A DNA stretch of 64,000 nucleotides from Geosiphon pyriformis uo1. Taxonomy: Eukaryota; Fungi; Glomeromycota. Position numbers and translations under genes: made by a program. Each line of letters begins with the position of its first letter. Within the stretch, counting starts at the first letter, position 1. The stretch lies in assembly GCA_016748015.1 (NCBI GenBank), contig JAAOMT010000094.1:281917-345916 (forward strand). Reading direction: 5' to 3'. This document shows positions 518 to 29,304 of this stretch, piece by piece. The notes beneath the pieces are model-generated. The model searched no databases. It had not been told where the DNA came from and worked only from the letters and a program-made list of their open reading frames with translations.

Positions 518-1220
518 TGTTATGGGTTGAAATAACAAGCTAACGGATAGCAAAGGAGAACAAGATTGTAGGGTAATGAAAATAATCAAAGGGAAATTCA
601 ACTTTAAAGAGCGAATTGAATGAGTATGGATTCAATGTATAAGATTAGTCTCATAAAATATCTCAGTCGCTATTCTTTTCAAAGGTAACTGGGGAATTTG
701 AAGGTAGAGGAATAGTCCGTACTGTCAACAATTGATCACCACTGATATAATTCTATGCCTCATGTCGACGCTCTTAGAATTCAATATCAGATATCAACTT
801 GTGCTTTTTAGTCACGTTTATTCAAATAATCTTTAAATGCTATAATTATATATGTTAGGAAAAGGCCAACAAGTAATCTTTTATCCTAAGATGTTTGGAT
901 ACTTGAAGGTAGAGAAAGGGAAATTAGCGATAAGAGAGTGATTAAGATGAAAGTTGTTATTTTTATTTATTTGATTCTTGTCTGAGAGATGATTTTTTAC
1001 AGTTAAGAAACTCATTGCTTATATAGCTATTGAAAGTGGTCAATGACCAGGTTAACAACTAGGTCAATAATCAGGTCAATGATCAAATCAATGATCAGGT
1101 CAACGGTTAAGTCATTGATCAAGTCAATGATCACTATTTAAAAATAGAATGACTAATTATATAACATCAGTGACTAATACATGTGATAATTAATAAAAAT
1201 TATGGGTTTCAACCATAACA
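518..1220 (-). repeat. Element A 3' LTR (703 bp)
   Basis: Direct repeat of 7559-8285; begins TGTTA, ends TAACA; PPT adjoins at 1221. Confidence 0.95.
1038..1133. repeat. U3 tandem array, 8 x 12 bp GGTCAATGATCA (10 copies at 8079-8198)
   Basis: Read directly. Two extra units account exactly for the 24-bp length difference between the two A LTRs. Lies just upstream (minus strand) of TATATAA at ~1019-1025. Confidence 0.9.
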
Positions 1221-1846
1221 TCATCCTCTCCAAAGAGATTGAGCTTCAGCGAAATCAAGCTATTTATAGAGTATTCTAATTGAAGGGTTTTGTTTAACTC
1301 AAAACTAACTAGTTTGTTGAAGTCTTTTGTGGATAGAATATATAGTACTTGAGGTGAAATAAGCTTTGTATTCAAGAGACCAAATCTTTGTATAAGAGTT
1401 TTGGCTCTTCTTGCAATGGTCAAAACTCTTGGAACATCTAAACGTATAATGCTTAAAATTTTCACTTGTATCTCTGAAGTTGTTTTCTTCATAAGCTTTA
1501 TTTCTTCTATAATTTTACCAAGACAACCATAGAGTTCTAGTTGCCTTCCATATGACAAGTTTTTGTGTATGGGCAAGATTTCCTTAATCATTTTTCCAAT
1601 TGTTATGGAAGGTGTAAGTATTGCTGCTGTTATGCTTTTCAGCAAATACTTATCCATTTTGCTACCAATTCTTTCTCTTCTGGTAGTGGTTTTCTTTGAT
1701 CTAATAACAGTATGTGTTCTACTGTTATCAGTTATGGTGGTTTGTTTTCTAATGGTCAGAGTAGCATTTGGATAATTTTTGATCCAGTACTTATAGAGAG
1801 TATAGAAAGCATTTTGAATGTTTTGATCTAGAAAATAATTGTTCAT
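1190..1846 (-). CDS. Element A ORF3, accessory protein of unknown function (218 aa from ATG 1846; frame open from 1942)
   Basis: Stop-free ORF between the pol end and the 3' LTR, in a different frame from pol, reading through the PPT into the LTR. Motifs are shared with ORF3 of B-F. Confidence 0.7.
   Translation of the reverse strand: MNNYFLDQNIQNAFYTLYKYWIKNYPNATLTIRKQTTITDNSRTHTVIRSKKTTTRRERIGSKMDKYLLKSITAAILTPSITIGKMIKEILPIHKNLSYGRQLELYGCLGKIIEEIKLMKKTTSEIQVKILSIIRLDVPRVLTIARRAKTLIQRFGLLNTKLISPQVLYILSTKDFNKLVSFELNKTLQLEYSINSLISLKLNLFGEDDVMVETHNFY
1221..1231 (-). promoter_or_regulatory. Polypurine tract of A
   Basis: GGAGAGGATGA immediately before the 3' LTR on the minus strand. Confidence 0.85.
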
Positions 1847-1887
1847 GTCAATCAAAGATACCTCTGTTTTGGGAATAGTGTATTTAT

Positions 1888-4800
1888 TTATATCTGATTT
1901 TTGTTGATTATTTGGGTTGGTATTATCACAACAGGTAACCAATCAGGTTGTTTGTGATATTTTTTGAGTCATGTGCTATGAACAGGGCGATCATTGAAGA
2001 TTGTTTCATATTGATCTTGTAAGATATAAGAACCATTGTTCAAAACTTTGTTGACTATAAAGGGTTCTTTCCACCAGCTAGAGAATTTATCACCATAGAC
2101 ATTGTCTCTGTCTGAACAGTATTCTAAAATTAAGTGACCAACACTTAAGGAAAGTGTTTTATATGGTTTCTTTTTTTTAAGCTTTTCTTGAAATTGTTTT
2201 ATCTTTTCAAAGGCAATTATCCATGCTTCTACTAATGAGTCAAGAATGGTACCAAGTCTTTTTTGCAAAATGTCTTTGTAATTCCCTATTGTTATTTCTT
2301 CAAAAGGTATTGTCTCAATATCAGTTTCTATTGGTAGGGTTGCCATTCATTCATAGAGTAGATAAAAGGGTTCATAACTTGTAATGTTATGATTCACAGT
2401 TCTATAAGTGAACAAAGCTGAAGGCAGTACTTTGTCCCATAAATTTGTTTTTTTGCTGGTTTTGGCTAGGGTTTCACATAGTGTTCTATTGAAATGTTCC
2501 ACTAGGCCATTTGTTTGGGGGTAATAAGGAAAGGAAAGTTTGTAACATATTCCCATTTTTCTGCAAAGTTCTTCAACAAGTGTACTGAGAAAAGCTCTTC
2601 TTCTGTCAGATAAAAGTTCTTTAGGGCAGCCATGGTAACAAATGATATTTTCATAAATGAATTTGGCTATTGAGACTGCTGTTTGGTCTGGAATGGCTCT
2701 TGCTTTTACCCACTTTGTAAGATAGTCAGTAGTTGTGATAATGTATCTGTTGCTATTAGGAGTTATTGTTAAAGGTCCAACAATATCTATACCAATTCTG
2801 TCAAAGGGTTGACCAATAAAGATTGGATGGATATCTTCTTTGCGATTGGGTTTTCCTTTTCTTTGGCAGATATCACAGGTTTTGATGTATTCAGCAATGT
2901 CTTTTCCCAAGATAGGCCAATAATAATGAGCTAGAGTTTTCTGAATTGTTTTTGTTTTTTTAAAGTGTCCAGCTAATGGATCAGTGTGCATATTGTAGAT
3001 CACAATTTCTTTTTCTTCAAATCTGATGACTTTTTGGGGGTGGTTAGGATTTTTTCTATTTCTTTTATAAAGTTGGTTCTGGTGAATCAAATAGAAATTT
3101 GATTGTTTGCACAAATGTTCTCTTTGTTGTTATGTGTATTTTGGTGGATATTGTTCTTTATCCAAAAATTCCATTAAGACAGAGTAGTTGTCCAAGTCCA
3201 TTATTGTGTTTGTCAAAAAGGAGGGAATTACTAATAATTAAGTTGGTTTGGTTTGAAAGAGTTGTTCTGTTACTAGATGGTAAGTCTGAAGAGAGCATCA
3301 GTATTTTGATGATTAGCTCCTTTGTGATGTTGAATATCATAGTCAAATTCATCTAAGTAGAGTATTCAGTGAGTTATCTATTTGTGTTCTAGCCTCTTTT
3401 TGTTGTACAGCCAAACCAAAGCTTGGTGATCTGTTACCACCAAAAACTTCACACCAAGAAAATACTTGCTCCAGTAACTGGTGGACCATACTACTGCTAA
3501 GCATTCTTGTTCAGTGACTGAATAGTTCTGTTCTGCTGGGGAAAGGGTTCTACTGACATAGGCTATGGCATGTTTTTTGCCATCTTCATCTTTCTGGGAG
3601 AGAACAGCACCAAGTTCAAAGCCAGATGCATTAGTGTAAAGGATAAAGGGTCAATCTAGATCAGGTTGCTTGAGAATGGGTTTTGTAACCAGTTTTTCCT
3701 TTAAAGTTTCAAAGGCTTTTTGCTAATATGTTCCCCAATGGTAATTGACATTTTTTCTGAGTAGCTGATTGAAAGGAGAGGTGATTTTGGAGAAATCTTT
3801 GACAAATTTGTGATAATAAAAGGCCAAACCAAGAAAAGAGCGTAGTTCATGAATGTTCATTGGTTGTTTAATGTTTTGGACTTTTTCAACTTTGGCTGGG
3901 TCAGGAAAGATTCCATCTTTTGTAATAAAATGACCAAGAAACTGGGTGGATTGTCTTCCAAAGAAAGATTTGATTGAGTTGATCTTGAGGCCAGCATTTC
4001 TGAGGAGGTCAAAAACTTTTTGCAAATGTTCCAGATGTTCATTCCAGGTTTTTGAGTATATCATTATGTTATCCAAATAGACTAGAACAAATTTTTTCTT
4101 GACTGATTCAAATACTTTATCCATTAAGCATTGAAAGGTGGAAGGGACATTGGTGAGACCAAAAGGCATGACTGTGAATTCATAGGTGCCATACTTGGTG
4201 ATGAAGGCAGTTTTCTTTCTGCTTTCTGGATCCATCTCTACTTGCCAGAATCCAGCAGTTAAGTCGATAATTGAGAAGAAAGCAGCATTTTTAAATTGGT
4301 CTAACATTGCATCAATCTTGGGAAGTGGGTACATGTCTCTTTCAGTGATGGCATTTAATTGGCAATAGTCAACACAGAAGTGTAGTGTTCCACCTTTCTT
4401 GGATACTACTACAACTGGGAAAGCCCATTCACTCTTGATTTCTTGTATGAATCCAAGTTTTTTCATCCAGTTTATCTCTTTTTTGATAAACTCATCATTG
4501 TGCCAATTGAATTGATAAGGCTTCAAATAGATGGGTCAAGTTTCTCTGGTGGTAATGGTGTGTTGTATCACATAAGTATGTCCAGAGGTATTACCTTCTT
4601 TGAAGATAACTGGACTATTTCTAGCCAGCAAATTTTCAATGTCTATTTTTTTTCTTTTGGGGAGGGTTTTTTTTGTTCTACAACTAGTGATTGGATCTCA
4701 GGTGGTTTATTCTCAAAGGACTTCTGTACTTCTTTCAATTCTTCTTTGGGTATTAAACTGATTGGTTCCCAATCTCTGTAATAGATCAGGCATAATTTGC

Positions 4801-7506
4801 ATTCATTGCTTGGAGAATACAAGGGTTTGTTGCACCAACACCAGACATAAGGACCATGCCACCAAAAACTGTATTTGGCTTTCTTGCCAGGTTTTCTTTC
4901 AAAGGTTCTTCTAAGAATATCATAATAAGGCCAGCAGATTAGCTTGCCATTTACAATGATTCCTTCTTTATCTGCTTTAACATTGTCCAGTGGTTTGCCA
5001 TTGTTGGTGAAGGTGGTATAGGCAAGTTCAGCAGTTTCTTCTTGTTCTTCTTGTTCTTCTTCATCATCACTCTCTTCATCATTTGATTCATCTGATTGTT
5101 CTTCTTCTTGGTTTTGTTTGGATACTGGAGGAGTTGTCCAATGGCGACACTTAACCACAATGGGTTTCTCACCACATCTGATGGTTAATTCACAAAGTTC
5201 ATAATCAAGCAAAGCTTTTGCTTTCTTGAGCCATTTATTGCCAACAATGATGGTGTATTCTTTGGCTTCAGAAACTTTCATGTTAGTTTCAATGCTAATT
5301 TTATTGATGTGGTCAGAAACAGCTTTGGCAATACCCAGTCCTTTCTTTTTGTTACCATGCACATTGGTCATTGGTCTGGTAGAAGGTTCATCAATTTTTC
5401 TACCAATTGCTTCCAAGAAGTGTTTGGCAATAACACTAACAGATAATCTAATGTCCAAAATTAAGTCAATGAAGTATCCAACCATTTAGGCTTTACAAAT
5501 CAGAGGGGTGACATTGCTGTTGTCAGCAAGTCCAGCTTGGCAAGGGCACTTGTTGGTTTTTGGTGTCTTCTTCTTTGGGATCAAGGATTTGCAAAGATCC
5601 TTTCTGAACTGTAGGTGGGTCATTAACTGGCCAAAAGTAATATGTGCTGGGGTTTCTATGAAATCTTTGACAATGGAATAGGGTCCAGATTTTTGTACAA
5701 TTTCTGGGGGTTCCAACTTTGGAGGATTCTTAAAGACTTTAGCCTTTGGTGGCTCATTGTTATTAGCAACAGAAGTTGAGGCTTTGTTGGGGTCTAGAAC
5801 GAAATCAACCTTGGCTTTCTTCTTCTTTCTGGTTGGTTCTGAAGTGTTAATTGCTAGTTCATCCATGTCATGGTTATCATTAGTTAAGTTAAAAGTGTAA
5901 AAAAGGTTTTTTTCTGGTTGGCTTGTACTCTTACCCTTTGGAGGTGCGCCTACCAGTTTAAAGACTAATAAACAGTGGCTTCAACTAGGGGATCCTCTCC
6001 AAAGAAATTAATGTTGGCATGATTGGGTCTTTGATTGGGGACATTGTTGTTGTTGTTGGGTCTGTTGTTTTGGTTGTCATTGTTTCTGGGAGCTAGAAGA
6101 GGCAGTGGAGAATTGTTACAATCTCTTGAATAATGTCCAGTTAATCCACAATGATAGCACACAGGTGGGCCATGATTTTGCTGTTTTTAATAGGAAGGTT
6201 GCTGGGGCTGGTTAAAATGAGGTTTGTATCTAGGTCTTAATGGTTGCTGGTTATCTCTGACTGCTTGTGCCAAAGATTCTAATAACCGGGCAAGATTGGC
6301 TGTGAGTCTATCAATTAATTGTTCATTTGGATCTTGAGTTTGGGCAGCAAAAAAAGCAGCAGCCATTTGAAGGGCAGGAGCCATGACAGGAGCAGGAGCA
6401 AAAACTGGAAGTATAGATCCTAAATGTATTCTTTGGTTGTCTTCAATTCATTGGACAAGTTTAATGGCCATGTTCATTGTAGGGTTGTTTTTTAGGGCCA
6501 AGAGAGGCCAAAGAGCATAAGATAAATTGGTTCTCAATTTTTTTGTGAAGGAATGAATCTTTTGTTCTTCTGTCCAGTTTCTCTCAGAGTCTATACATTT
6601 GATTAGCTTTCTAATAGCTTTGGCATATTCAGTCACTACTTTTCTAGAGCCTTGGATTCTTCTTTTCAATTCCATGCACCATTTGGATATTAATATTGGG
6701 GTTCTGAACTTGGCCTCAAATCGGGTAGTAAAAAAGGTATTTTCTTTTCCAGCATTAATTGGTGTCCATCTAATTATTCTGTGTTGAGCATTGGCATCTG
6801 TTTTTTGTGAGAACCAGATAGCAGAAGAGCCTTGGAGGTAGCCACTAACAATTTGGAACTTGTATTTTTCATCATACTGGTTGGCTGTGGCAGCTCTTTC
6901 AAAATCATCCAACCATTTAATTGGATCTTGTGCATCACCTCTAAATAGTGGTAGTGGAATATTGTTTCTTCTTTCTAGAGCAGTTTGTATACCTTGGAGG
7001 GGGGCCAGAATGTTTGCTTGCATGGAGTCATTAGCCATTGGTTCAGGGGTAACTGTTTGTGTAAACGAGTCTGATTTGCTTGATAAAAGGTCAAAAACAG
7101 GAGCAGTTTGGTAGCTTTCTTTTTCTGTTTCAAAGGGAGTTTCAGTTGCTTGATGGACAGCAATCCAAATGTGGATTTGATGATTCAGATATTCGAAATC
7201 AGAGGGCTGTTGTTCAAAGGTTGCAGAATATAAGAGCTGATTGATACTGTTGTTTCTTTCTTCAAAGTCGTTTTCAAAATAAGCTTGGTCAAAGTAATAG
7301 GTTGTATAAGCTGTATAGGTTTCAGCTGAATGCTCATTTAGGAACCAGTTTCAAAAGTCTTGGAATTGTCTACTGGATTGTTCTTCAAGGGGGAAGCAGA
7401 TCAAGCAGGAGGGCAGAGGATTAAGTTCAATGAAATCTAGGTCGTTTCTATTGTGTACTGCAAAGTGTTCTTCTGAATGCTGTGGCAGATATAAGTAATC
7501 ACTCAT
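1888..7506 (-). pseudogene. Element A gag-pol (capsid, CCHC knuckle, protease, RT, RNase H, integrase), broken mostly by in-frame stops
   Basis: FRGDAQDPIKWLDDFERAA (capsid); CYHCGLTGHYSRDC; LILD protease; FCVDY, MPFGL, YLDN and FLGH (RT); HTDPLAGH...CDICQ, GIDIVGP and PQTNGLVE (integrase). Confidence 0.93.
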
Positions 7507-7534
7507 ACAATGAGAGAATAAGTGAATTTTGACA

Positions 7535-7552
7535 ACCTCACAGGGAGCACCA
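7535..7552 (-). promoter_or_regulatory. PBS of A, TGGTGCTCCCTGTGAGGT
   Basis: 18-nt complement of a tRNA 3' end (ACCTCACAGGGAGCACCA), 6 nt from the 5' LTR; identical to the PBS of E and F. Confidence 0.9.
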
Positions 7553-7558
7553 CTTTTA

Positions 7559-8285
7559 TGTTACAAGTTAGAGTAATAAGCTAACAGATAGCAAGGGAGA
7601 ACAAGATTGTAGGGTGATGGAAATAATCAAAGGGAAATTCAACTTTAAAGAGTGAATTAAATGAGTATGGATTCAATATGCAAGATCAGTCTCATAAAAT
7701 ATCTCAGTCGCTATTCTTTTTAAAAGTAACTGGGGAATCTGAAGGTAGAGGGATAGTCCATACTGTCAACAATTAATTACCACTGATATAATTCTATGTC
7801 TTATGTTGGTGCTCTTAGAATTTAATATCAGGTATCAACTTGTGCTTTTTAGTCATGTTTATTCAAATAATCTTCAAATGCTACAATTATATATGTCAGG
7901 AAAAGGCCAACAAGTAATCTTTTATCCTAAGATGTTTGGATACTTAAAGGTAAGAAAAGAGAAATTAGTGATAAGAGAGTGATTAAGATGAAAGTTGTTA
8001 TTTTTATTTATTTGATTCTTGTTTGAGAGATGATTTTCTACAGCTAAGAGACTCATTGCTTATATAGTTATTGAAAGTGGTCAATGACCAGGTCAACGAC
8101 TAGGTCAATAATCAGGTCAATGATCAAGTCAACAATCAGGTCATTGATTAGATTAATGATCAGGTCAACGGTTAGGTCATTGATCAGGTCAATGATCACT
8201 ATCTAAAAATAGAATGGCTAATTATATGACATCAGTGACTAATACATGTGATAACTAATAAAAATTATGAGTTTCAATCATAACA
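7559..8285 (-). repeat. Element A 5' LTR (727 bp)
   Basis: Direct repeat of 518-1220; adjacent to the PBS; followed by TSD CTAT. Confidence 0.95.
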
Positions 8286-9056: not shown

Positions 9057-9241
9057 TATTACAAGTAATTATTTAGGATCTCAAATCAAATAACAAACCT
9101 GTAACTTGGTATTCAATAGTTGAACTGATTGGTAATATCTGAAGGTATTTTGATCTGAAGATTTTGATTGGAGTTTTTTGTATAATAGACAGAGATTCTC
9201 ATGTTATTTTTATCCATAGCTTCTTAGAATTGCATTTCTGT
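9057..9241 (-). repeat. Element B 3' LTR, U5-end fragment
   Basis: Matches 59864-~60048; cut by element C at CTGT. Confidence 0.9.
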
Positions 9242-10210
9242 TGTTACTGGAGGTTTTTGGTCTCTTTTTTTGAATGTTATTAATGTTTGTTTTGCTGTGA
9301 ATTCACGTTCTCAGGAAGTAATTGAACCTTCAATAACTGAATTTATCTTCAAATTATCTCCTATAATTTGAACTGCTGGGCTTATAAGTGGAATAGTCAA
9401 TTCCATACCAGTTACTTTATGTAGTTATGTTGTAATAAACATCAACTCTTTTCCAGGAATTGCTTGTCTTGAAGTTCACTAAAATGTGTAGTTACTTTGC
9501 TATGAAAGTCAACTCTTCTACAGGAATCTTGTCTGTAGTCTACCCTAATAATTGTAATAAAAAAAAAAATAAAAATAAAAAAAATGTAAAAGAAATAGAA
9601 TTTTGTCAAGGGAAACGTTTTCTATTCAGGCCTGGAATCACTAACAGTTTATTGAAATTGGTAGCTAATCAATTTCAAAACATTAGTTGTGTTAAGAGAA
9701 TTTCAAGTGTAATAATTTAAGGATTTGGTTTTCAAATATTTGATTTTTATTTGATTTTGTAAAAGGTAATTTGTTTTAATTAAGATATTTAAAGTAAGAT
9801 GCTATAATAAGATATGGAAAGGATATATTTTCTTGAAAAGAGAAGCTTTTTTTTTATACAACTTGTTGTAATACTAGTCTTTGAACTTGCACTTTTCTCT
9901 TTGCTCTAATTTTGGTGAACTAAAAATACATTTTGATAAATTACAAGTTATTTCTATGAATTATTGATTATTTCGGCCAATTTTCCATTAATTTCGACGA
10001 ATTTTGACTATATTAAATAGTTCAGGGTATTGTGTAATTTGATCATCTTAATTTCTATAGTACAAATCGAGTTATTAATTAAATAATGATATTTGATAAT
10101 TTGGCTAATTAATAAGTGATAATCGAAATGATAATAATATATGCTACTTAATAATAATAATTATAAAGATAATTTCATGCTAATTAATAGCTAAAATTCT
10201 ACTAGTAACA
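9242..10210 (-). repeat. Element C 3' LTR (969 bp)
   Basis: TGTTAC...GTAACA; homologous to the D LTRs; PPT adjoins at 10211-10222. Confidence 0.93.
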
Positions 10211-10898
10211 TAATTTCCTCCTCAATACTGAGTTCTGTCAAAGTCCAAGCACTATTTGTAATATCAAGATAGTGGTCCAAAATAATTGAAGTGATTTGGT
10301 CTGAAAATTGTTGAAATTTCAGTTTTGTAAGCTTTTCAATGTGTTGAATCTTCATTGGATGAAGTATTGGATTTTGTAAGACATTTTTACAAGTGTTGAA
10401 TAAATCATAGAGTCTAAATGCTGCTCTAAGTTTGTAGTAAGTGTTTGTTGGTCCAGCTGCTATCTTAAATTCTTTGTGAATTTGTTTTTGTATGACTTTA
10501 GGAATGATATGTGTTGTTTTAAGTTCCAGTTTTTATTCATAAAATGTTCTTTCAATATAAAAGTATCTATATATAAATGTATATTTATTGTTCTGTTCAT
10601 TAAGGAATAGTAGAAGTTTTTGTTAAATTGTGGCATTTGGTGGAATGTTGATAGGAGCAGATAAAAAGTTTTCTTTTAGTGCTTGCTTTAATAGTTCTGA
10701 TAACTGACTTCCAGAGTAATTTTTTGGTTTTTTTCTATAGGAGTAATAATTCTGAGAATTTTTTACTACTGGGGCTGTGGTTTTTTTCTGACTGTAATTA
10801 ATTTGACTTCTATTAATTGTTATGAATAAGTCAAGAAGTGTTTTTAAGGCTAACATTAATTTTTGAGATATTTGTTGAATATTTCAGAGAATAATCAT
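10191..10898 (-). pseudogene. Element C ORF3 (236 codons, a few internal stops)
   Basis: ATG at 10898; same length and frame as D ORF3; reads through the PPT and stops just inside the LTR. Confidence 0.8.
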
Positions 10899-11047
10899 GA
10901 TAAAAATAACTAACTAATAAAAAGAATAAAGAAAATTATTTTTGAGTATTGGGTTTTTATTTGTTTTTGGGTTTGGTTGTTTCTTGTAATTATTTACTAT
11001 TTTTTTGTTTTTGTATATTTAAAATGATTATTGTAAAATATGTTAAA

Positions 11048-14000
11048 TTAAGTGTTCAAGTTTGGTTGTTGTTCTATTATAATTATTGGTTTTAAATTTT
11101 GGGGAATATTTTCAGAATTAACTAAAGGGGAATGTATACCAATTTGTGGAATTAATGATTCAGGATTGTTTCTGAAATAATAATGTTTCAATCAATTTCT
11201 ATGTACAACTTTTGCTAGTACTTTGTCATCAAGTCTTAATTTGTATGATCTATTGCCTAGAATTTCGTGAATATAAAATGGTCCATCCTATTTGTTTTAA
11301 AATTTTTTACTCCATTGTTTTTCAGTCTTAGTTCTGTGTAAGAGAACTTTATTTCTAACTTTAAATTTGTTGACAGTTGATGGTAATTTGTTGTTATGTC
11401 TTTCTTTTTGCTAAGCTTAGGAGTGTTCAATATAAGTTGCTGCTATACATTTTTTTTCTTTCAGAGTACTAAAAAGAGTGTAGGCCTTTCTTTTGAGTGT
11501 TTCTTGAAAGTTTTATTTATTAATTAGTTGTACTGGATATGTTTTCACTGTGAAATTAATTGGTAATATTGCTGTCCTTCCATAAGTCAGATCAGATGGT
11601 ATGTGTTTTGTAGTATCTTGTTTTAGTATTCTGTATACTAGTAACACTGATGGAATAAAGATATTTTATTCTTGCTCAAAATCAATTGAGACTTTGGCTA
11701 ATAATTTACACAATGTTCTGTTGAAACATTTTACAAATCTATTTGTTTGAAAGTAATAAGATAATGATAGAAGTCTTTTGACATTAAACCATTCACAAAT
11801 TTCTTGTATCAGGTTGTTTACAAAATGTGTTCCTTGATCAGATAAAAGTTCAATTGGGCATCCATGTCTGCAAATAATGTCTTCATAGATGAAATTTGCT
11901 ACTGATTTTGCATCTGCTCTTTGAATGGCTCTAACTTTAGACTATTTGGTGAGATAATATACTGCAACTGCAATATAACAATTTCTTTGGATTGTAATAG
12001 GTAATGGCCTGACTAAATTAATTCCAACTTTGTCAAAAGGTTGTCCAACTTTGATTGGGTTTAAAGGTTCTGTGGGACAAATTTCTCTTCTTTTTTGACA
12101 ACTATCACAGGATTCTACATATTGTCAAATGTTTTTTTGCATGTGAAGCCAAAAGTAATGTTCAAGAGTTCTTTAAATTGTTCTATCTCTTTCCAGATGT
12201 GCTGAAGATGGGTTTGTATGCATGTTATATAGAATTGTTTTTTTTCATGCTCTTGTATTAATCTGAGTAATTGGTTTGGGTTTTTGCGATTTTTATAATA
12301 AATTTTGTTGTGGTGTATAAAATATTGTTTTGATTGGTGTTGTAAACAATGTTTTTTACTTGGAGACCAATTTTTTGACATGATAAGAGTTTCCAAATAA
12401 TTTTTGATGTTATTGTAATTTCTGAAACCCATTGTTGTTTGGTTTTGTTGGTAGGTTGATATGTTGTGGTGGTGTTGCTGCTGGTATTAATCTTGTTTCA
12501 TCCTTGAAAGACTATCAATATTAGTGTGTAGTTTTCTTGGTTTGTAATGTACAATATACTTGTAGTCTGCTAAGAAATCATTCTATTGAGACTGTTTAGC
12601 ACTTTGTTCTGTTTTTTTTTATTGAGCCATTTGAGGCCAATATTGTTAGTTATAATATCAAATTTTTTTCCATTCTTTAAGTATTGTTAAAAATGTTTAA
12701 GAGCCCAAATAACTGCAGCAGCTTCCAATTCAGTTGATTCATATTTGAGTTTTGTTGGTTTGAGTATTCTACTGGTATAAACAATGACTTATTCCTGGTT
12801 ATTTTCATCCAATTGTAATAGAATAGCACCAAATACTATGTGTAAAGCATCAGTGGTTAGTTGGAACTTTTTGTTGAAGTTTGGGTAAGCAAAAACTGGG
12901 GCTGTTGTCAATTTTGTTTTGAGAGTTTCAAAAGCTTTTTGTTGTTTTTCAGTCCATTGATATGGTACATTTTTGTTGATAAGATAATTGAGTGGTTTAG
13001 CAATTTCTGAAAATTTTTTGATGAATTTTCAATAGTAGAAGGCTAATCCTACAAATCCTTATAGCTCTGTGGTATTTTTAAGAGTTTGAAAGTTTTTAAC
13101 AGTATTGATTGTTCCAGAGTTTGGTTTGACTCCATCTTTGCTAACAATGTGTCCAAAAAAGATTAAGCTTGTTTTTTCAAAGTGACACTTTTTAATGTTT
13201 AATTTTAATCCTGCTTTTCATAATCATTGAAAAACTTCTCGCAGATAAATAAGATAAGCTTCAAAGCTTGGTGAGTATACATCAGTGCCATCAAGATAGA
13301 CAACTACTGATTGCCATAAAAGGCCTTTATATACAACATCCATAAGTCACTGAAATGTCGTTGGTGCATTGCAGAGTTTAAAAGGCATAATATTGAATTC
13401 ATAGTTCTCTCCTTGGGTGGTAAATGCTGTTTTAGGTCTATCTTTTGGATCCATTTCGACTTGTTAGTATCCACTTTTCAAGTCTAAAGTTGAAAAAAAC
13501 TTGGCTTTTCCTAGGGCATCTAACATGTCATCAATTCTTGAAAGAGGGTAGACATCTCCAATTGTAACACTATTCAATTGTTTATAATCAACACAGAATC
13601 TGATTTTTTCGTTTTTCTTTTTAACTAAAACTACTGATGAGGCCCATGGACTTCTTAATGGTTGAATCAATCTGTTATTGAGCATTCTTTGGACCTCTTC
13701 TTTAATAAATTGGTGGCTGGCAGGTGGTACTCAATAAGCTTATTGTCATTTTGGTAGAGCATCTCCTGTATGGATCTGGTGTTGGACAATATCAGTTTTT
13801 CTAAGATCATTGTTGTCTTTTGCAAATATATCAGCAAATTCAGCTATCAATTATTTCAATTGTCTTTGTTGTTAGAGTTTTAAGAGGACCATATTGATTT
13901 TAGAGAGTTTTTTTTCTAGAACATGATAGTTTTTAGTAGTCAAAATAATATTTGGATTTGGTAATAGGATATGTCTCACAATTTCGATGAAATTAGAAAC

Positions 14001-17000
14001 AATTTGAGAGGTTTTATCTTGAAAAATGTTGCTATGTATGATCCCAATTTCTAATTTATTTAATAAAACAATGGAATAGTTGTTGGGATTGTAGAAAGTA
14101 ACTCGAAATTTCTTTATTTCTTTTGGGATATAGATATTTGGAATTGAGATTTCATGTTTTAAACAGATTTGTTCATTGAATTCAAAGATTTGTTGAGTAG
14201 TAGTAGGTTTTAAGCAAGTGTAGATTTTGTGATGTTCTCTAAAAGGTGAAATGGTAATTGGTTGTGGAAGTTGAAAAATCTGGTAAGATTTACTTTGTGT
14301 ATTAAGAGCCATATTTACTGGAACTGTGAATTGTTCAGTTGAACCAAAATCTTGAGTTTCTTTTTCACTTTTTCTTAGTTGTTCTCTGTTGTTAACTGAT
14401 TGTAAACTTGAAATGTTGATTAAGAGTAAGTAAATTGCTTGAGCAATTTTCTCTGCATGCTCAATTTTAAATGGTTTTTCAGTTTCATTCTGTAGCATAA
14501 TAGTAATGTTTTCAGTGTATTCTGCATCTATGACTTCTCTTCTAATATTGATTCCTTTGCTTGCCAATGATGATCTGAATGCAATTTGAACTATTGCTCT
14601 AGGTGGAATTTCAAGAGTGATTTTGAGATTGATTTTTGTCAAAAACTTTAATTGAAGAACCAAAGTATCTTTTTCTAGATATTTTAAATCATATCCAGTA
14701 TTAATTTTGTGTGCTTTTTCTGGTCTGATTCTTTGGCCATGGTTGTCAAAATATTTAAGTTATAGGGGTGGTTGATTTTTAAGAAGATAGATATGAATAG
14801 TTGATAGTTCTTTTACCCATTCAGATACTCCAAATTCGATTTCATTTTTATCATTTTCATCTGGCAGGGGAATGCTAAGAGCATAGTATTCTAAACACCA
14901 TTGGTCATCACAAGGCATAACACATTCTTTACATAATTAAATATTCATTTGCTCTAATCATTGAATTTAAGCTTCTTTGGTTGAGTACATATAACTTGTA
15001 ATTTGGTGGTAGGTTTCTACTTTATCTTCATAATCAAATTCAGCTAACTCTATAGTATACTCAATGTATTCAGCTTCTTTTATTTGGTGGACATCTTCTT
15101 GAGTAGCTCTATTGATTAATGCCATTGTTAAGTTAAAAATCATTTTAGCATCATGAGGATAATAGTACAGTTTATTAAGAGCACTATTATATGCTGCATT
15201 GAATGAGGTTCTTCTTCTCACTTTTTCTGAAATTGATAAGACATATTGAGAGATTTGATCACATACTCCTCTTTTTATTGCAACATCAATCCAGTTGTAT
15301 TCTTTTGGTAGCATATCTCCAAATGTAAGACAAGATGTGTTGTCCTATTTTCCATTTTTTTTTGGGGATTCAAATCGTTCTCTATGGCATGCTTTGCAGA
15401 AGTAACAGGTATGAGTTTCATATTTTTTTTTTGGGGAAATACAGGCTTCTATAGATGAAAGCTTCTTCTTGTAGTTTTTGCATTTTAGTGGAATATATAG
15501 TGGTTTTTTTATGGTTCTGGTGTAAAATATCTAACTTTCTTCCATTTTTTTGATTTTTTAAAAATCTCTTGTTTTGTTTCCTCAGCCTAATTAGATGTTG
15601 ATCCAAGAGCCATGTAGGTTTCAGTAAATGGCATTTCTTTCTTCTCCTCAAAATCGAATACTAGGGCTTTTTCTGAACATTTGTTAAAAGTACCACAAGT
15701 AATAGGTACTATGGTGTATTGTTCTTAGTATTGGGATGCATTCATGATTAGAACTTTGACTGGAATAATGATTTTATCAATGGTAAATAAGAAGTTGTCA
15801 ATTTTTCTTATTGGAGTTTTTTTTATGCCATTAGCTGTAACAATTACAGTTTGGACTGGTCTGTCAACAGTTCTTTGAAGCTGTTGCATTAATTGGTAGA
15901 TAATAATACTTCTAGCTAATCTACTGTCTAGAATTAATTGGATGGGTTTTCTTTTTACTATAGCTTTAGTGCATATAGCAGTGATAGCTTTTTGTTCATT
16001 TACTGTTGTATTACTAAGCAAGAATAGTGATTCATTTGTCTCAAATTCGAATAAAAATATATCTGATAGATTGGCATTTTGGGCAATTTGAGCTGGTAGA
16101 ATTGTATTGTTGGAAGAGTTTGATCTTAGTGCTGTAGCTTTACCTTCAGAAAGTGCAGTTTGTTGAAAATCTGATTCTTCTTGCATTGTTAAATAATTGG
16201 GTTGAGTGTAAAACTGAGTGAGTTTTTGTTAAACAGAATTTCGGAAAACTAGTTAATTATTGGAATTAGATCTGTTGTTGTTTGTTAAAAAACGATTTTA
16301 TGATGTAAATTGGTTTTGTTGAACCAATCTTCTGGTTGGTACTTAATATTGTTGAGTAAATTGTATCTGATATTGCTGAATTGGTAAAGATTGCTGATAT
16401 TGTTGCTGAATTGGTTGTGAAGCTAATTGATAGTAACTGTTTTGATTTTGTGGTCTTGGTGGGTAATAAGTTGGTAATAGGGATTGGTAGTAAGATTGTT
16501 GTAATGAAAAGTAACATTGATTACTCCTGTTTTGTTGGTCTCTTTGCAATTTCCTGCAATCTCATTTCCAGTGTCCTGAGATTTCACAATAATAACAATT
16601 TTGAGGTTAGTTGTTAGATGGTAATCCAAAGTTGTTTTAGTTGCATCATTGTGGTGATTGATATTTTTGTGGTTGTTGCTGCTGTTGTTGTTGGTTTGTA
16701 AAATAGTTTTCAATCTTCTTTGTGAGTTGGTCTATCTTTTTTTCAGCTGTTAAGCTGGTTTTTCTAATAGCAAGATTTACAAATTTTGTGTGGTTGGCTT
16801 CTTCTATAGCCATTTCATAATTCTTTGCATGTTGAATAGCAGTGACCAAATCTTTAGGTGAATGGGAATGCACTTTTTTTATGAGTTTGTTTTTTAATCC
16901 AGCAATAAATTGATCCAAAATTTGGGCATCAGAATAGTAGTCATTGGTTTCCAATTGGTGAATTCTTCTGAGAAGTTTGTTGAACTTCTTTAGGTAGGTC

Positions 17001-18028
17001 ATAATTGATTCACTTGGTTTTTGTTTAATATTGTGAAAGCAATTTTGGAGAGTAATAGATATGTTATTGTCAGTGAATTGTTATAAGAAAGCATCTTTAA
17101 ATGCTTGCCAATTTTCAAAGAGTGTATTCAAGTTTTTAAACCATTCTTCTGCTGTTCCTTGGAGAAAGTATAAAATTGCTTTGAGTATTTTTGCTGTATT
17201 CCATCCATTTGCATCTCCTGCTTTCTGGACTTTGTTAAGTCATTCTTGTGGACTAATATCATTATTTTCACCAGTAAATTCTGGAATCTTTGCAATATAA
17301 GCAGTTGTTATTTCTTCTTTGTTTTTAATAGTTTCTTCTTGTTTTGATTCAGTTTCTTCACTTTCTAAGCTTTCTGAATAATTATTTTCATTTTTCTGTA
17401 AGTAATCAAGAAGATTGGTGCTAGTTGATATTGGTTCTTGCTGTTGAGTAGAACTTTTTGGTGAAGTGAAATCTTCTGGTCTTGAAAATTGAATAAGAGG
17501 TGAATTTGGTGTCTGTGATTAAGCAAGTGAAATTGGAAATGGAGTGACTGAAAGTGGAAGTTTGGTGCTGGTTCCTGGTTCTGAAGTTTGCAAGTATTTG
17601 GCAGTTATCTTTGGTGTCTTTGGAGTGTTTGGAGTGGTACTTAAGTGTTGCTTCAGTTTTTGTTTATTTTTGTTATTTGTTTCTGTTTCTAATTCAAAGT
17701 CAATAGAATATTTAGACTGTACTGGGTAATTTTTTTTACAATACTGGATAATGTTAAAATTAAGTTCTTTGAAGTAGGTGGCAAGTGTTTTACTGTCAAG
17801 ATTTTCAGTTTTTAATCATGAATAGTGCACTAAATTATTGTAGAAGTGGCTTCTAACTTCTGAAATGTTGTAATTTCCAAGAAGATAATTGCTGATGCAG
17901 TTTTCAATATACAGATAAAGTGTTCTTTTAACAATTTTAATTCCGTTTGGGATGTTGAATCTCTGCTTGCAATGGGTATAAATTGACTAATAATACTTTA
18001 GAGTTATTGTGTCTGGTGTGATTATCAC
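11048..18028 (-). pseudogene. Element C gag-pol
   Basis: YIAKIPEFTG capsid start, LILDS protease, Cys-rich module, dUTPase, RT (IRFCVDY, LDLKSGY), RNase H and integrase remnants. Confidence 0.92.
14335..14730 (-). pseudogene. dUTPase domain in C pol
   Basis: Motifs I TGYDL, II RSSLASKG, III VIDAEY, IV EKIAQ, V QDFGST. Confidence 0.9.
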
Positions 18029-18053
18029 TTTAAAGTTGTTTTTGTTGTGTTGT

Positions 18054-18071
18054 TTCTGTAGAAGAGCACCA
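18054..18071 (-). promoter_or_regulatory. PBS of C, TGGTGCTCTTCTACAGAA
   Basis: 2 nt from the 5' LTR; same type as the D PBS. Confidence 0.85.
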
Positions 18072-18073
18072 AA

Positions 18074-18288
18074 TGTTACTGGAGGTTTTTGGTCTCTTTT
18101 TTTAAATGTTGTTAATGTTTGTTTTACTGTAAATTCACGTTCTCAGGAAGTAGTTGAACCTCCAATAACTGAATTTATCTTCAAATTATCTTCTATAATT
18201 TGAACTGCTGGACTTATAAGTGAAATAGCCAATTCTGTGCCAGTTACTTTATGTAATTATATTATAGTAAATGTCAACTCTTTCTCAG
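18074..18288 (-). repeat. Element C 5' LTR, U5-end fragment (remainder 28571-29300)
   Basis: Matches 9242 onward; interrupted by E. Confidence 0.92.
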
Positions 18289-19151
18289 TGTTACTCATAG
18301 AATATAGGAAATATAGTATTATTAGTCAGTAGATATTAGCCAATCAGATGTAGATGTAATAAATGTGAAATTCTAAGATTTCTTTCAAAGGAATTGCAAG
18401 ATTCCAAGAATTTCAAGATTCCCTGATGAGAAATCGCAGAATTCCAGAATTCCAGGATTCTTCTCATCAGAAATTGCAGGATTCCAGAAATTCCAGAATT
18501 CCTGGTGCAAGGAATAGAGAAATTGAGGAATCTCAATTATGTATATATAGCAGTAGGATTAAAAGCTAAAAAAACAAACTTCTCAGTTTAGATTTAATCT
18601 AAACAACTCTCTAAATCACAATTATCTAATAAATAACTATTTGTTATCTCAAAAACTACGTCTACTATCAACTATTCATGTTGATAGTAATTGATACTTA
18701 ACCACATGGGAACAATAGCTCTTAATCATGGCTATTAATGGGATACTAAATTTGCAAATTGTTTTGGCTTATTGCTTTATATTTTGTTATTTTCTTTATT
18801 TTCTTTGATTTTGTTATTGTACACTAACCAATTGATTAAAAGTGCTGATTACTGATGTCAAAGATTGCCTGGTAAAAGACTCCTGCAAGTGGGTAGGACA
18901 CATACAGAAGATATGGATTACTTACTAGAGGATTGCCAGCCACCAAGCCAAGAAAAGAATTGACAGACTTGTGAATCTGGGAAGCTACAGATAAAACAAC
19001 TATTGAATCTCTGTCCATTATACAAAGGACTCATTTGGAAAACCTTTAGATACCAATCACTTAAAAATATTATCAACAACACAAGTAGCTTTTGAGCACC
19101 AAGTTATGAATTTGTTATTTGACCTGAGACCCCAAATAATCAACTGTAACA
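18289..19151 (+). repeat. Element E 5' LTR (863 bp)
   Basis: TGTTAC...GTAACA; GAATTCCAG-type array ~18367-18535; TATATATAG ~18543; followed by the PBS. Confidence 0.95.
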
Positions 19152-19153
19152 TT

Positions 19154-19171
19154 TGGTGCTCCCTGTGAGGT
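19154..19171 (+). promoter_or_regulatory. PBS of E, TGGTGCTCCCTGTGAGGT
   Basis: 2 nt after the LTR end. Confidence 0.92.
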
Positions 19172-19213
19172 ATAATCCTACAGAGAACCAGCACCAACAA
19201 ACACTATTCAAAA

Positions 19214-22200
19214 GTGGCAGAATCAAAAAATATAAGAGCAAACCATTTAGGATTTGCAAAATCTTTATTTCAATACTATTGTCAATACTTGAGATTAAAC
19301 CACAATCATATATCCACCAAATCAGCCTTTAATTTCTATGTCAACAAAAAGATTTTCTCTTTGTTAGGAACACCAGTGAATACTGAATCAGCAAGGGAAA
19401 CTTTCTACAGAGAATTAATTCAAAACACCAACTTACTAATAAATCATAATTTCACATTCATTATTACTGAGATCAACAAAGAAATTGAACATCACATCCA
19501 ACAAAGATATCCAATTACATATGCTAATAAAGACAAAGGAAAACTACAAACACCAGCAGTAACTCCTAGAAAGATACAACTACCTACTTGGAAGAAGACA
19601 AGAGTTGAATCACCAACCAATCTATTTTATTACTATACACTCAGAAGCACCATCAACATTTTATTAACAAGCATGTCCACATCAAATGCAACTTCAGTAT
19701 TTGGATGATTCTCATTCTAAAGTAAACAAAAGAAAACAGAATTATTAGGACCATATGGCAAATACTTTGAAGGATTTAAATTACAATCACCAATGCCATC
19801 AGGAATTCGATCACCGCCGCCTCAATCAGACTTTGGAACCACTACCCCATGAGAACTATCTGAAGAAGAAGAGGAAAAAGAGTTGGAAGATCAAGAATTT
19901 ACTTACCAGAACCCGATCACTGAAAACTCGGAAGTCAAAACACCAAATTTTCAAACCCAGCAAAATTTAAAGTTAGAAAACCCAGAAATCAAAACTCCGA
20001 ATATTTAACCACCACCAAATCAGAACAATCAGAACCCCAATCTAATTAATCAACCAGACTTACCTCCTGTTATCGTCATTAACCCACCACTAGTTGAACC
20101 GATTAGCCAGCCACCACAACAACCACACCAGCAGATTTAACAGCCACTAGTATCACTTCAACAACCACCGCAACCCAACTTAGATTCAATGGCATACACA
20201 CCAATAGCCAAACTCGAGAAATTCACTGGCAAAGAGGACAATGCTTAAGCCTGGATCAATGATGTCACCAAAGCAATTACCACCAATAACTGGGATGATG
20301 CCAGAACCATACAAGTCATCCCCTATTTTTTTAAAAACATGGCAGACTCTTGGTATCACAGTCTAGCCCAGAAATCTCAAAACTTTAATGCCTTTAAGTT
20401 AGAATTTTTGAGGTATTTTAGTAATAACAACAGCATCAACCGCTTGGCAAGTACTTTCACCACCATCAAACAAGGAGACACAGAAGCAGTCATCACTTAC
20501 TTGAGATGCTTCCATAGAAATCTGCACCAAATTCAGGCAATCCAAGCTGAATACTTTACAGTACCACAGATCTTGAACCAATTTATCTGAGGATTGTGCA
20601 GTAGTATCCTCCAGCAAGTACGTTCAATACATCCAGTTGATCTCCCAACTGCCGTGACTCATGCCAGAGATTTTGAAACTGCTTAGTTAGAAGCTAACCA
20701 TGCCCAAGCTGTGAATTTAGTAATAAATAGATCATCTGACCTGGATTCCAAGCTAAAACAATTTAGTGACAACATCAATTAGAAACTAAAGGGCTACTTA
20801 GCTAACAATCATGCAATTTATCAGCCATCCCAATGACATAATGATTTAAGAAACATGAATCGTTTCCAGAATCAATCACATCCAGGATCATCCACTAATT
20901 AGTCACGACAGCCAGAAATGTGTGTCTGCTACAACTGTGATAAACAAGGGCATATTAGGACAAACTGCCATACTTATAGCAACTCACGATCAGAAAATCA
21001 TTATTGAAACCCTGATTGCCAGTTTTAGACTCCGAATTACCAATCCAATCAAAAGCAATATCAAAATGCTTACCTGCCTATAATGCAGCAACCAATTTAT
21101 TAGTCAACAATATATCAACCACCAATTTATCAGCTGCAGCCATCAACAATTTATTAATTGCAGCCACAAGTTATTTATTAGCCACAGCCTCAAGTAATTT
21201 ATCAACTCCAACAAGTTCAAATGCCGCACCAAAACTCAGTTACAATAACATCAGAAAATCCAAGATCCAGAATTACCCAAAACTGGAGATCAGCAATAGT
21301 TGTTAATCAACTGATCCCCAGTTCATTAGGCCAACAATCAGAATCTCGTCAGCAGGATTTGGGTATCAGTTCCATCCAAAACCCAAATTCCCAGAACTAT
21401 TTAAGTCTCTTGGTTATCCCAGAAGATGTTACCTCTAACAATCCAGAACTCAATCAACAACCAACAATACTTACCAACAACATCCCACCAGTAATCATCA
21501 CCAATGACAAGTCTTTAACAGCCATCTTTCCATTTGAACTCGAGGAAGTTATGTCAGTTCTCTTATTTAGTAAAGCAGCTCTAGAAGAAAAACCCATTAC
21601 TGTTATGTACACTAATGCGAAAGTTGATGGCCATTCCATCAAGTTAATTCTTGACAGTGATTCAGCAGACAGCATCATCACACAACAACTCATGGATCAA
21701 TTAGGTCACTGAGTTGATCAAGCTGTCAGCACTAGAATCATCACTGCCGATGGCACCACAAAAACGCCTATTGGTGAAATTGATGACTTCCCAATTAAAG
21801 TTAATGGTATCATTACTTCTATCAAAGTCTTGGTGATGGAAGTGACCCAATACCAAGCACTAATGGGCAATGATTAGTTGTCTAAAAACAATGCTATCCT
21901 TGATTGGACCACACAGGAGCTCCAGCTCAGCCAAAATAGCCAACACACGCGAGTATTGGCAACATGTGGCCATTTCAAACCTAACAATGTCATGACATCA
22001 GCACTGCTTATTGATCTCGGGAAAGAAAAACTAAAGCCTACTTAGGAGGTGTACCAAGTATCATGGGCCAATGTCAACCACAATGAACTGCCACCAATAC
22101 TTGCCTGGGACAACAATAACAATAGAAAGGAGGAACAAGGAAAAAAACCTACCTGTGGAACCACTATCAACACTTGGACTGACAACAAAGACCACCATGA

Positions 22201-25200
22201 CCTACCACTAATACTATCATGGAATGACAACCCTAAAAGAAAGCAAAAAGAAGAACTTATCTGGAAAACGGACGACCTAACCTAGACCAACAACAATGAA
22301 AAAGAACCAACACCAAGCTGGGAATGGGAAGAAAACAACAAAGGGAAAGGAAAGGCGAAAGAAGAAAAGCCACTGCCAACAAACCCGTATACTTTCTATC
22401 AATACACAACACCACAACAATACATCTATTGCCAACTCAAACTAGTGTGCATCAATTGTGGCAAAAAATTGTTGTTAATGGGCATATGCTGTGATAATGA
22501 TAAAGAATATCAGATGACAACCAAGCTCTATTGCCACGCATGTCTTATTGAATGTTTTGGAAGACCAAAACGAATGGGAAAATGGAATAATACACCATGT
22601 TTAGTCTGTAAAGAAACTCTTCTTGATGAAAGAATATGGAATGACATTCCTGAGAGAGGAGGAACGTGCAACATTTCCTGTCAATACACGATCCTCATTA
22701 GTGACTAGATTGAAAAAGGGACACCAATAGAAGCCATTTGGAGAAGAACTGTACAGTGATTGGACAGTTGTCCACACGATGATGATGAATTATGGCGAAT
22801 GACAATTGCCAACATTAAAGGTGCATCACTAGAAGAAATCAGAACAATTAAAAACAACCCACTAGAACCTATTGAGCTTGACTGGGATGCAGAGCCAGTT
22901 ATAAATTTTCTGGAACCAGAAGAGTTCCATAAACACTACCAAAACTTGGCACCCACTAGAAAAGAGCAAGAACAATGGCTAGCATAGTTGAATACCAGAC
23001 TGTGTTGCCATTGTTTAATTCTCAGTGACTTTGAATATTGTGACAATTGTGACTTCATTTACAATCTACCACCACGTATGATCTACATGATCCCCAAAGA
23101 TAAAGAACCAATCAGCAGCTGTGCATTGGAGTCAGAATTACTGTTCGATCCCAATTCAAACTCCAACAACAATGACGACGAGAATAACAATTCCAGCTCC
23201 ATTCAAAATAGCAATGACAATAACAACAATATCAACACAGATTCAAACTCCAACTCAAACTATGAACAATATATCGTGCTTTCTGATCTTACCAAGGAAC
23301 AAGAATTGAAATGGTTCAGTGATAATAATGAAGGTATTATGCCAGAATGTGCGCATGATACTGATGCCAGATTTGATTTGAGGTATCCAGGAAAAGATGC
23401 CATCAAATTGGAACCACATTTATGCATCTGCATTGATCTGAAAATAGTGCTGGAAATCCCAACAACAACAATGGTTCAACTAACATCCCAGAGTAGTTTA
23501 GCAAAAAAGAGATTAAAATAAGAGGAGGAATAATTGATGCAGAATATGTAGGAAATATCATTGCCATGCTACAAAATAACTCAGAAAAGGCCTATATAAT
23601 AGAGCCAAACAAAAAGATAGCACAGACAATATTCTTACCTTTGGTTAAGATAGCTCAGTTAGTACTAGTGGGAAACAGGGAAGAGTTAGGAATAACAGCA
23701 AAAGGGATACAGGGATTTGAGTCAACAGATAGAATAGATGTACCAGTTAATATGGCAGAGAAAAAAATTGTTGGCCAAGAAGAAATTATCTCAACCAGTC
23801 AAGCTATTTCCATTCCACCATATAGCCAGTACATGCTAGCAATAGAAAGGAAAAAAAAGGAACAAGAACAGATTTTTGAAGCTGAAGCAAATCTTTGTGA
23901 ATCAGGAAAGATTAGACTAATCAATCTCCACATACCAGCCAAAAGCTATAGCTGCATAAAAATTCCTATCTATAACAATACTGGCAATGTCATCAACATA
24001 CCAGAAGGAACTACTATCAGATATTTAACCACAGAAATAGAAGACCAACCACCAAACCCCATTCCAGACTTTCCACAACTTTGTGAATATGTTGACATCA
24101 CATCATAAACAATCTATGAATGAGATGAATGTTATTTGCTCCAATCAGAACAATTAGAACAAATGAACATGGGAAATCTAGACCCACTACAATGTATGCA
24201 GCTCAAAATGTTATTTAACAATTTTAATGACATCTTTGTCAGCGAAAATGAGTTTGGCCGAACTGATATTATCCAGCATCAGATCAAGACTGGAAATGCA
24301 ATGCTAATCAAACAGCAAGCATACAGAGTACCACCAACCAGCCATGAAATCATTTGTCAAGAGATTAACTGAATGCTTGACAATGGATTACTTCAGCCAT
24401 TAATGAGCCTATGGTTGTCACCAGTAGTACTTGTCCATAAGAAGAATGGAAAAATCCGATTTTGTGTGAACTACAGGAAACTCAATGGTGTAACTCATAG
24501 AGACAGCTATCCAATTCCACAGATACAAAAACTATTCGATGCTTTTGGTGGAAACAAATAGTTTTCAATGTTAGACTTAAATAATGGTTACTGACAAGTA
24601 GCCATGGATCTAACTAACAAAGAAAAAACAGCATTCACCACAAGAAAGAAAAATTTTGAATTTGAAGTCATGTCATTTAGCTTGATGAATGCTTCAGCCA
24701 CATTTCAACAGCTAATAGAAATAGTATATACCAGCTTATTATGGAAATCAGTAGTAGTTTATCTGGACAACACCAATGTGTTTTCAAAAACCTTTGATGA
24801 CCATTTATATCATCTCCAACAAGTGTTCAAAAGACTAAGATGAGCAGGATTAAAATTGAATGCAACAAAATGTTTCTTTGGCAAAACAGAACTCAAGTTC
24901 TTGGAGCATATAGTGAGCAAAGATGGCATTAAGATGGATCCAGATAAGATAGAGATAATAAAGAAATTTCCAGTACCAACCAACATGACCAAGTTAAAAT
25001 CATTCTTGGGATTTGCAAGCTACTATTGCCACTTTATCAAAGATTTTTCTAAGATAGCACAGCCATTCAATCAGCTCCAAACCAAGAATGTAAAATATGA
25101 ATGGACTAAAACCCAGCAAAAAGCTTTTGACATCTTAAAAAAAAGTTTATTTAAGCTCTGGTATTGATCTATCCAGATCATAGCAAATCATTCATTATTA

Positions 25201-27007: not shown

Positions 27008-27031
27008 TCGACAAAAAGAATATATAAGAAC

Positions 27032-27690
27032 ATGGTTGATGTGACAGAAAAAATCAGAAAAATGGAAATTATGAACAATATTCATTCACTAGCCCAACAA
27101 ATTTTTTAATTAATTCAACACCAGAAAATGAAAATTACAATCAATCAACAAACCATTCATTACAAAAATATGGCAAAGAGACCACAACACAAAGCACAGA
27201 AAAACTTAAAAATGTTGTTGACAAGATCATGACCAAGATAAAATTGGCCATAAAAGAACAACAAATAGTCGGATTACACTAAGAACTTATCAAAGAAACT
27301 TGGACTTGGTAGACACAACAATTTCTGAAAAACTATTGTTATTTTCACTTGGGACAACACATAAATATCCAGAATTTATACACTGACAAAACAAAATGGT
27401 TATTTAACACAATAATACTGAGACAACTGGAACAATTTGTGGGAAAGAACAATCTAAACACACAAGCTTGAGCCATTTACCAGCTATATATGAGATTTCA
27501 AAACCAACCAGAAATCTTACTTAACACAGCAATGGATACAGTTACGAGTAATCAATTAGGAAAAATAATCAATGCCCAATTTAAAGAACTACAAACTAAA
27601 ATAACACAAGTAATACTTGAAAAAAAAGTTCAAGAAATAATTCAAGAAGGGGAATTAAAGGAATTAAATTTTGATGAAACTCAATATTAA
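27032..27690 (+). pseudogene. Element E ORF3 (stops and one frameshift)
   Basis: MKITINQQTIHY, YCYFHLGQ, FVGKNNL...AIYQLYMRF and QLGKIINAQFKEL, between the pol end and the PPT. Confidence 0.78.
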
Positions 27691-27703
27691 AAGGAGAGAA
27701 TAA

Positions 27704-28566: not shown

Positions 28567-28570
28567 CCAG

Positions 28571-29300: not shown

Positions 29301-29304
29301 CTGT

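Follow-up and report, generated by a model that had tools for sequence, protein, structure and literature searches.

A soluble, unnamed ORF3 family between integrase and the 3' LTR of Ty3/Gypsy elements of Geosiphon pyriformis, tentatively read as a regulator of its own LTR

Extra open reading frames (ORFs) between pol and the 3' LTR are already known. The sense ORFs in this position described as aORF-3S (PMC7264820) resemble the frames analysed here (ORF3) in slot, in strand, in their presence in most copies of a family and in the lack of matches outside the elements, but as described there they are env-like, some with membrane segments, and come from plants and insects, whereas ORF3 is fungal and predicted to be soluble. 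Grande GENE23, the nuclear regulatory example given in the same source, is antisense, whereas ORF3 is sense. An additional ORF of unknown function ('add. ORF') has also been described in fungal Gypsy elements, some families of which carry dUTPase (PMC2864245); those elements contain a chromodomain, which was not matched here, and the likeness noted is one of description. VANC of the VANDAL elements, as characterized in PMC5735166, is element-encoded and fast-evolving, and is found in a methylating host together with lineage-specific tandem arrays in non-coding DNA, as is the case here. VANDAL elements are Mutator-like plant DNA transposons, whereas the host here is an LTR element, and binding and demethylation, demonstrated for VANC (PMC5735166), are hypothetical for ORF3. 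No Pfam row for the VANC domains DUF1985 and DUF287 was obtained for ORF3. Foamy viruses encode Tas, an accessory protein that binds the LTR promoter of the element encoding it (PMC4929722, PMC8670036), a role that can be proposed for ORF3 by analogy. Tas comes from an animal retrovirus with env, and no sequence or fold match to ORF3 was seen. Its gene is placed near the 3' LTR. In searches of the open-access literature we found no paper describing the ORF3 family, which is a real, unnamed accessory family in a slot where extra ORFs are known.

The window, that is, the whole stretch of DNA that was analysed, is 64 kb long. Based on self-comparison and LTR ends, it contains six decayed Ty3/Gypsy elements in a nested arrangement, plus a solo LTR, with four of the six elements and the solo LTR lying within other elements:

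518..8285, minus strand: element A, with LTRs at 518-1220 and 7559-8285 and gag-PR-RT-RH-IN, without dUTPase; it stands alone
9059..60803, minus strand: element B, interrupted by C (in its 3' LTR), D (in pol) and the solo LTR; a mosaic
9242..29300, minus strand: element C, with E inserted in its 5' LTR
18289..28566, plus strand: element E, inside the 5' LTR of C
32868..52871, minus strand: element D, with F inserted in its pol
36312..46449, plus strand: element F, inside pol of D
14310-14756, 23309-23754, 40968-41408, 48092-48538 and 54150-54431: dUTPase, between protease and RT, in five of the six elements, A being the one without it

The host elements show paired LTRs with TG..CA ends, a PPT and the order PR-RT-RH-IN that define Ty3/Gypsy, and the Pfam domains detected in them were RT, RNase H, integrase, SH3-like tail, zinc knuckle and dUTPase. 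The integrase tails carry the SH3-like domain, and no chromodomain was matched in the four tails scanned. Paired LTRs differ by 8-11%, almost purely by transitions. The two LTRs of a pair disagree at 89 of 140 CpG sites, compared with 20-25% of other C sites, and the CpG observed/expected ratio is 0.19. These results indicate dead copies that decayed in a methylated state. A cysteine-rich stretch without a Pfam match precedes the dUTPase, and in A this stretch is present while the dUTPase is absent. Primer-binding sites starting TGGTGCT were noted in E, F and B (19152-19170, 37382-37400 and 59845-59863, respectively). An assembly gap of 20 N at 62513-62532 lies outside the six elements, and ORFs were also seen at 62579-62998 and 63634-63993.

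In all six elements of the window, a frame on the same strand as the element was detected between the integrase tail and the PPT or 3' LTR:

1190..1846, minus strand: ORF3 of A, open, 218 aa, with its final 10 codons within the 3' LTR
10191..10898, minus strand: ORF3 of C (C/D type), 235 codons with three in-frame stops, reading through the PPT into the LTR
27032..27690, plus strand: ORF3 of E, with four stops and one frameshift near 27200-27215, stopping before the PPT
30086..~30860, minus strand: ORF3 of B (B/F type), start codon lost, a frameshift between 30783 and 30730 and at least five stops
33819..34526, minus strand: ORF3 of D (C/D type), 235 codons with three in-frame stops, reading into the LTR
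44670..45404, plus strand: ORF3 of F (B/F type), 244 codons, start codon lost, three in-frame stops

A preliminary description of this DNA had placed six conserved ORFs in the env position. Its coordinates and strands hold, each frame following the integrase tail and lying at the PPT or 3' LTR, and all block sequences quoted in it are present in the DNA. The frame itself was recovered in six of six elements, but only that of A is open, since B to F all carry stops or frameshifts. The 218 aa of the A frame exceed the longest stop-free run of 169 codons (mean 62) in 5000 shuffles. In B, E and F the frame terminates immediately ahead of the PPT, whereas in A, C and D it reads on through the PPT and enters the LTR. 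Intact versions exist in protein records: 20 full-length 218-aa records of A type among the 120 relatives listed, C/D-type records of 235-239 aa and F-type records of 244 aa, while the B and E types are represented among the records found by fragments only. A splice-acceptor-like pyrimidine tract with AG was observed directly before the C/D-type ORF3 start (34527-34570 and 10899-10940, minus strand), and no such tract with AG was observed close to the ORF3 start of a soil-metagenome element, L001.

A short DNA motif accompanies the gene:

1238..1247 in A (minus strand), and at the same place in B to F: DNA motif with the core ARCTCART, conserved 17-28 nt ahead of the 3' LTR

The motif was found in all seven elements compared, i.e. 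the six of the window and L001 (about 3092-3101 there). It is read in two different frames, indicating a cis element and not protein homology, and it may be part of a plus-strand priming or termination signal.

Beyond this DNA motif, the proteins of five elements are alike. Among the ORF3s of B, C, D, E and F, all ten pairs were significant (z 6.9-117, with 0 of 500 shuffles reaching the score), and identity between lineages was 18-30%, compared with 44-62% for integrase. By these comparisons, the ORF3s of B to F are one family. Three protein searches gave 121, 37 and 258 matches, so that ORF3 is kept in many copies and is not a one-off capture; the named relatives among the matches listed (120 of the 121, all 37, and 120 of the 258) were without exception Geosiphon pyriformis hypothetical proteins (120/120, 37/37 and 120/120). 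The slot was verified at the DNA level for the window elements and L001. A profile search of 1.84 billion representatives returned 108 relatives at E<=0.001, among which P0353, a long repetitive protein, looks spurious. The ten profile matches that were looked up comprised eight Geosiphon proteins and two metagenome proteins (P0312 and P0314), and the profile matches contributed two further subfamilies, G and H. B-type ORF3 records were also found outside element B.

In a metagenome scan, at least two stretches were confirmed among 592 candidates. One of them, L001, carries RT, RNase H, integrase, an open 230-aa homologue, the motif, the PPT and the LTR start in this order, indicating that the ORF3 slot, between integrase and PPT, is conserved beyond this window. 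The Atlas cluster nearest P0314 is all-eukaryote and mostly Mucoromycota (0.94, 176 of 256 features). This cluster is a lead that the family may be wider; no ORF3 relative was found in three scans of viral contigs. At 398-811 of the metagenome stretch L002, a 137-aa open frame lies just upstream of the ORF3 homologue, without a Pfam match and unrelated to the six ORF3 types, and some elements may therefore carry two extra genes. Many gene models (P0007-P0360) join ORF3 to integrase tails, to LTR sequence or to other elements, which marks hundreds of 'hypothetical proteins' as transposon debris.

To assess selection, we used a frame-wise test with a null model that preserves mutation context. 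In the core of B versus F, conservative residues were kept in the ORF3 frame only (P=0.001; the other five frames, P>=0.24), with P=0.058 for identity and P=0.042 for the whole frame. As controls, integrase gave P=0.001 and the LTR nothing below 0.06. Between C and D no sign of selection was detected (P 0.11-0.45), which fits decay after insertion. The Nei-Gojobori dN/dS, which the preliminary description had named as a check, was 0.44 for both pairs; wrong frames gave 0.41-0.83, so the ratio is uninformative and was rejected. ORF3 DNA is no longer alignable between lineages, though the proteins are still alike, and this likeness is the stronger argument for selection. Pair homology, the selection test, the L001 homologue and hydropathy together support, for B to F, the earlier view of ORF3 as an old, selected, soluble accessory protein.

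The position of A within this family is less clear. The preliminary description had treated all six proteins as one family shared even with A, the element without dUTPase. A does lack dUTPase, but none of its five window pairs with B to F was significant (z -1.3 to 1.6), and no tblastn match linked its ORF3 to theirs. Profile-profile comparison, which that description had itself named as a refuting test, was non-significant for A: hhalign against the family gave probabilities of 0.2-1.2 and E of 0.03-0.27, and block-shuffled decoys scored higher. The superfamily HMM reached at most 0.6 bits on the 20 full-length A copies, compared with up to 8.1 for shuffles, the A profile was not significant on any of nine targets, and there was no A-type stretch among the 108 family profile matches. 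These negative results favour an unrelated gene captured into the same slot, with the common blocks arising by chance in A+T-rich helical proteins, a reading that concerns membership, not mechanism, and that we hold to be the lesser, though substantial, possibility. Against it stand an alignment, an ordered-block test and predicted structure. With BLOSUM62 and the cis-motif tail removed, A aligned nearly end to end with P0314 at P<=0.03 in seven of nine copies, while six other targets in the same test were not significant, except for one copy. Scored as ordered blocks against a profile built without it, A reached z 4.5 when the blocks were picked by eye and 2.7 when a rule fixed them, compared with 7.9-17.4 for left-out true members, and 0 of 150 shuffles reached its median. 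The same A-free profile found blocks 1 and 4 of the preliminary description unforced. The models of A and the family have in common the order helix, strand, strand, linker and run of helices, with blocks 2 and 3 at near-equal positions, at a pLDDT of only 40 for the A model. The ELNL likeness between the tails of A and P0314 was rejected as protein homology, as it is the common DNA motif. Judged on block order and predicted structure, the ORF3 of A is probably a remote relative of the B-F family.

No Pfam family was above cut-off for any ORF3, the best PHROGs match had E 0.0012 (unknown function; 0 of 7 convincing), the best match among PDB sequences was importin-5 at E 0.023, and Foldseek gave no match at E<=0.001 in PDB and viral structures. 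None of these searches pointed to a known Env or characterized domain. By hydropathy, 35 of 39 proteins had no 19-residue window above 1.6 and none exceeded 1.8; in the same 39 proteins, the Kyte-Doolittle 19-mer maxima of 0.39-1.79 (N-terminal, at most 1.36) indicated no signal peptide or membrane anchor, in agreement with the earlier statement that ORF3 is not Env-like. Each ORF3 protein has 0-4 Cys. Together, these features predict a soluble protein that is not Env. An Env-like or movement protein, to which the env slot and strand would correspond, is highly improbable given the absence of a signal or membrane stretch, the 0-4 Cys and the absence of a Pfam family above cut-off.

In the family model (P0314, 15 rows), residues 81-150 form a helical core predicted with confidence (pLDDT 85-93), and the N-terminal helix-hairpin is weak. 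In the VIA fold search, the best Z values were 5.6 and 5.3, and 5.4 for the poor A model, with none at 8 and the N-terminal part barely covered, and we do not claim a new fold from these values. Helix-turn-helix matches were within the common range (sigma F 1l0o_C, Z 4.5, rmsd 2.4, 57 aligned; ParB, Z 4.1-4.3). Conserved columns are hydrophobic or capping, without a catalytic-looking set, from which we infer a binding protein. The invariant residues in alignment A4 are N and L only, with no basic one. A basic patch lies directly after the N-terminal hairpin, and the metagenome homologues are acidic overall (pI 5.4-5.9). The pattern R/K/H-x2-5-PY, which corresponds to the PY-NLS consensus as given in PMC2408616, was found in six of eight subfamilies (C/D, 32/78 records; F, 4/9; B, 2/3; G, 4/4; H, 1/1; metagenome, 3/3). 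It is missing from A (0/20) and E (0/7); A has a plain basic cluster at that place instead.

Directly after ORF3 and before a TATA-like box, four of the six elements (A, E, B and F) carry strong, lineage-specific tandem arrays in U3:

1038..1133, minus strand: in A, upstream of a TATA-like box, eight copies of a 12-nt unit (ten at 8079-8198)
27784..27916, plus strand: in E, units of 8/40 nt, with further arrays at 18401-18502 and, in the solo LTR, at 56528-56646
29798..29990, minus strand: in B, F-like, units of 10/20/50 nt, with a further array at 60551-60728
45496..45652, plus strand: in F, units of 10/20/50 nt, with a further array at 36370-36553

The arrays of C and D are weak (TRF scores 52-54). 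U3 arrays were not spared decay (0.052 vs 0.086, 0.185 vs 0.095 and 0.081 vs 0.096). Tandem repeats in U3 commonly serve as enhancers to which host factors respond.

We then compared B with the two lineages that it resembles. Tiles from its gag-pol and downstream LTR resemble E (68-82%), while those from the integrase tail, from ORF3 and from the initial 300 nt of the LTR resemble F (74-80%). B groups with E in RT (68%) and IN (75%), but with F in ORF3 (61%), and trees show the same. Switches between F-like and E-like sequence lie near 31100-31000, in the integrase tail, and at the TATA box: before the TATA box, 16 informative sites are F-like versus 3 E-like, and after it 10 are E-like versus 4, with a mixed short alignment further past it (7 versus 11). 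The F-like block, which reaches from within the integrase tail as far as the TATA box, shows no break at the ARCTCART motif between ORF3 and U3. The position of these switches indicates that the ORF3 and U3 array of B moved as one block. By this site pattern, B is a mosaic that exchanged ORF3 together with its U3 repeat array, a finding that is new here; the co-exchange is one event, and physical linkage alone suffices to explain it.

Of the mechanisms considered, we tentatively favour a nuclear regulator of the element's own LTR, similar to VANC or Tas but a member of neither. The ORF3 protein would enter the nucleus, would probably bind the tandem repeats in the U3 of its own element and, once bound, may increase transcription or oppose silencing by methylation. 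Its import into the nucleus, its binding to DNA, its target and the sign of its effect are all inferred, and the basis for a transactivator, namely the basic patch, the PY-NLS-like motif and the co-exchange with the U3 array, is indirect. The fast divergence of ORF3 while U3 arrays differ by lineage and the heavy CpG decay also speak for it. Against a regulator stand the absence of the PY motif in A and E, the weak C/D arrays, the lack of an invariant basic residue, the acidity of the metagenome homologues, helix-turn-helix matches at noise level, the decay of the U3 arrays, the enhancer role common for such arrays and the lack of a selection signal in C versus D. A more specific proposal, that ORF3 of Glomeromycota Gypsy elements, including A, would be an activator or anti-silencer with sequence specificity and a helical fold not yet described, co-evolving with the U3 array it binds and exchanged together with it as a cassette, and that this would explain the LTR burst in a strongly methylating genome, is doubtful.

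The basic patch is also consistent with an RNA-binding helper that shields, exports or chaperones element RNA or blunts small-RNA silencing. Rhizophagus makes small RNAs from young transposable elements, according to 10.1101/2021.03.30.436303, and the Atlas gives, at 0.90-0.93, one cluster of closterovirus coat proteins and one of RegA translation repressors. Those Atlas rows, however, share 123-156 of 256 features, fewer than the 170 typical of true kin, and no viral fold matched at E<=0.001. We consider such a helper unlikely, and found nothing specific in favour of the RNA-acting silencing suppressor raised in the preliminary description.

Slightly more unlikely is a chromatin tether or an integrase or Gag partner that steers integration or nuclear entry in place of a chromodomain. 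The SH3-like integrase tails without a chromodomain in the four scanned, and the nesting of most elements and the solo LTR, would suit a tether, and integration can be modulated by accessory proteins of transposable elements, as described in PMC13547354. Nesting, however, is expected in an LTR-rich genome, and in B an F-like ORF3 occurs beside gag and an integrase core of E type, while B-type ORF3 records exist elsewhere, which suggests that a tight fit of ORF3 to its own integrase is seemingly unnecessary.

A self-limiting factor for copy-number control or exclusion of rival families, for which Ty1 p22 provides an analogy, would agree with the presence of ORF3 in all lineages and its fast evolution. 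Similarity to Gag was limited to one weak Pfam row (1 of 15 members, E 0.0073), and the families grew to more than 100 recorded copies, making this reading improbable.

Returning to the nuclear regulator, the intact A copy and the lineage-own U3 arrays make a test of matched versus mismatched binding directly feasible. For annotation, hundreds of ORF3 'hypothetical proteins' should be masked as transposon-borne. Striking LTR expansions have been described in Geosiphonaceae and Ambisporaceae, as reported in PMC11952901, and they occurred although the DNA analysed here shows strong CpG decay. The conserved third gene is a candidate for how these elements multiplied.
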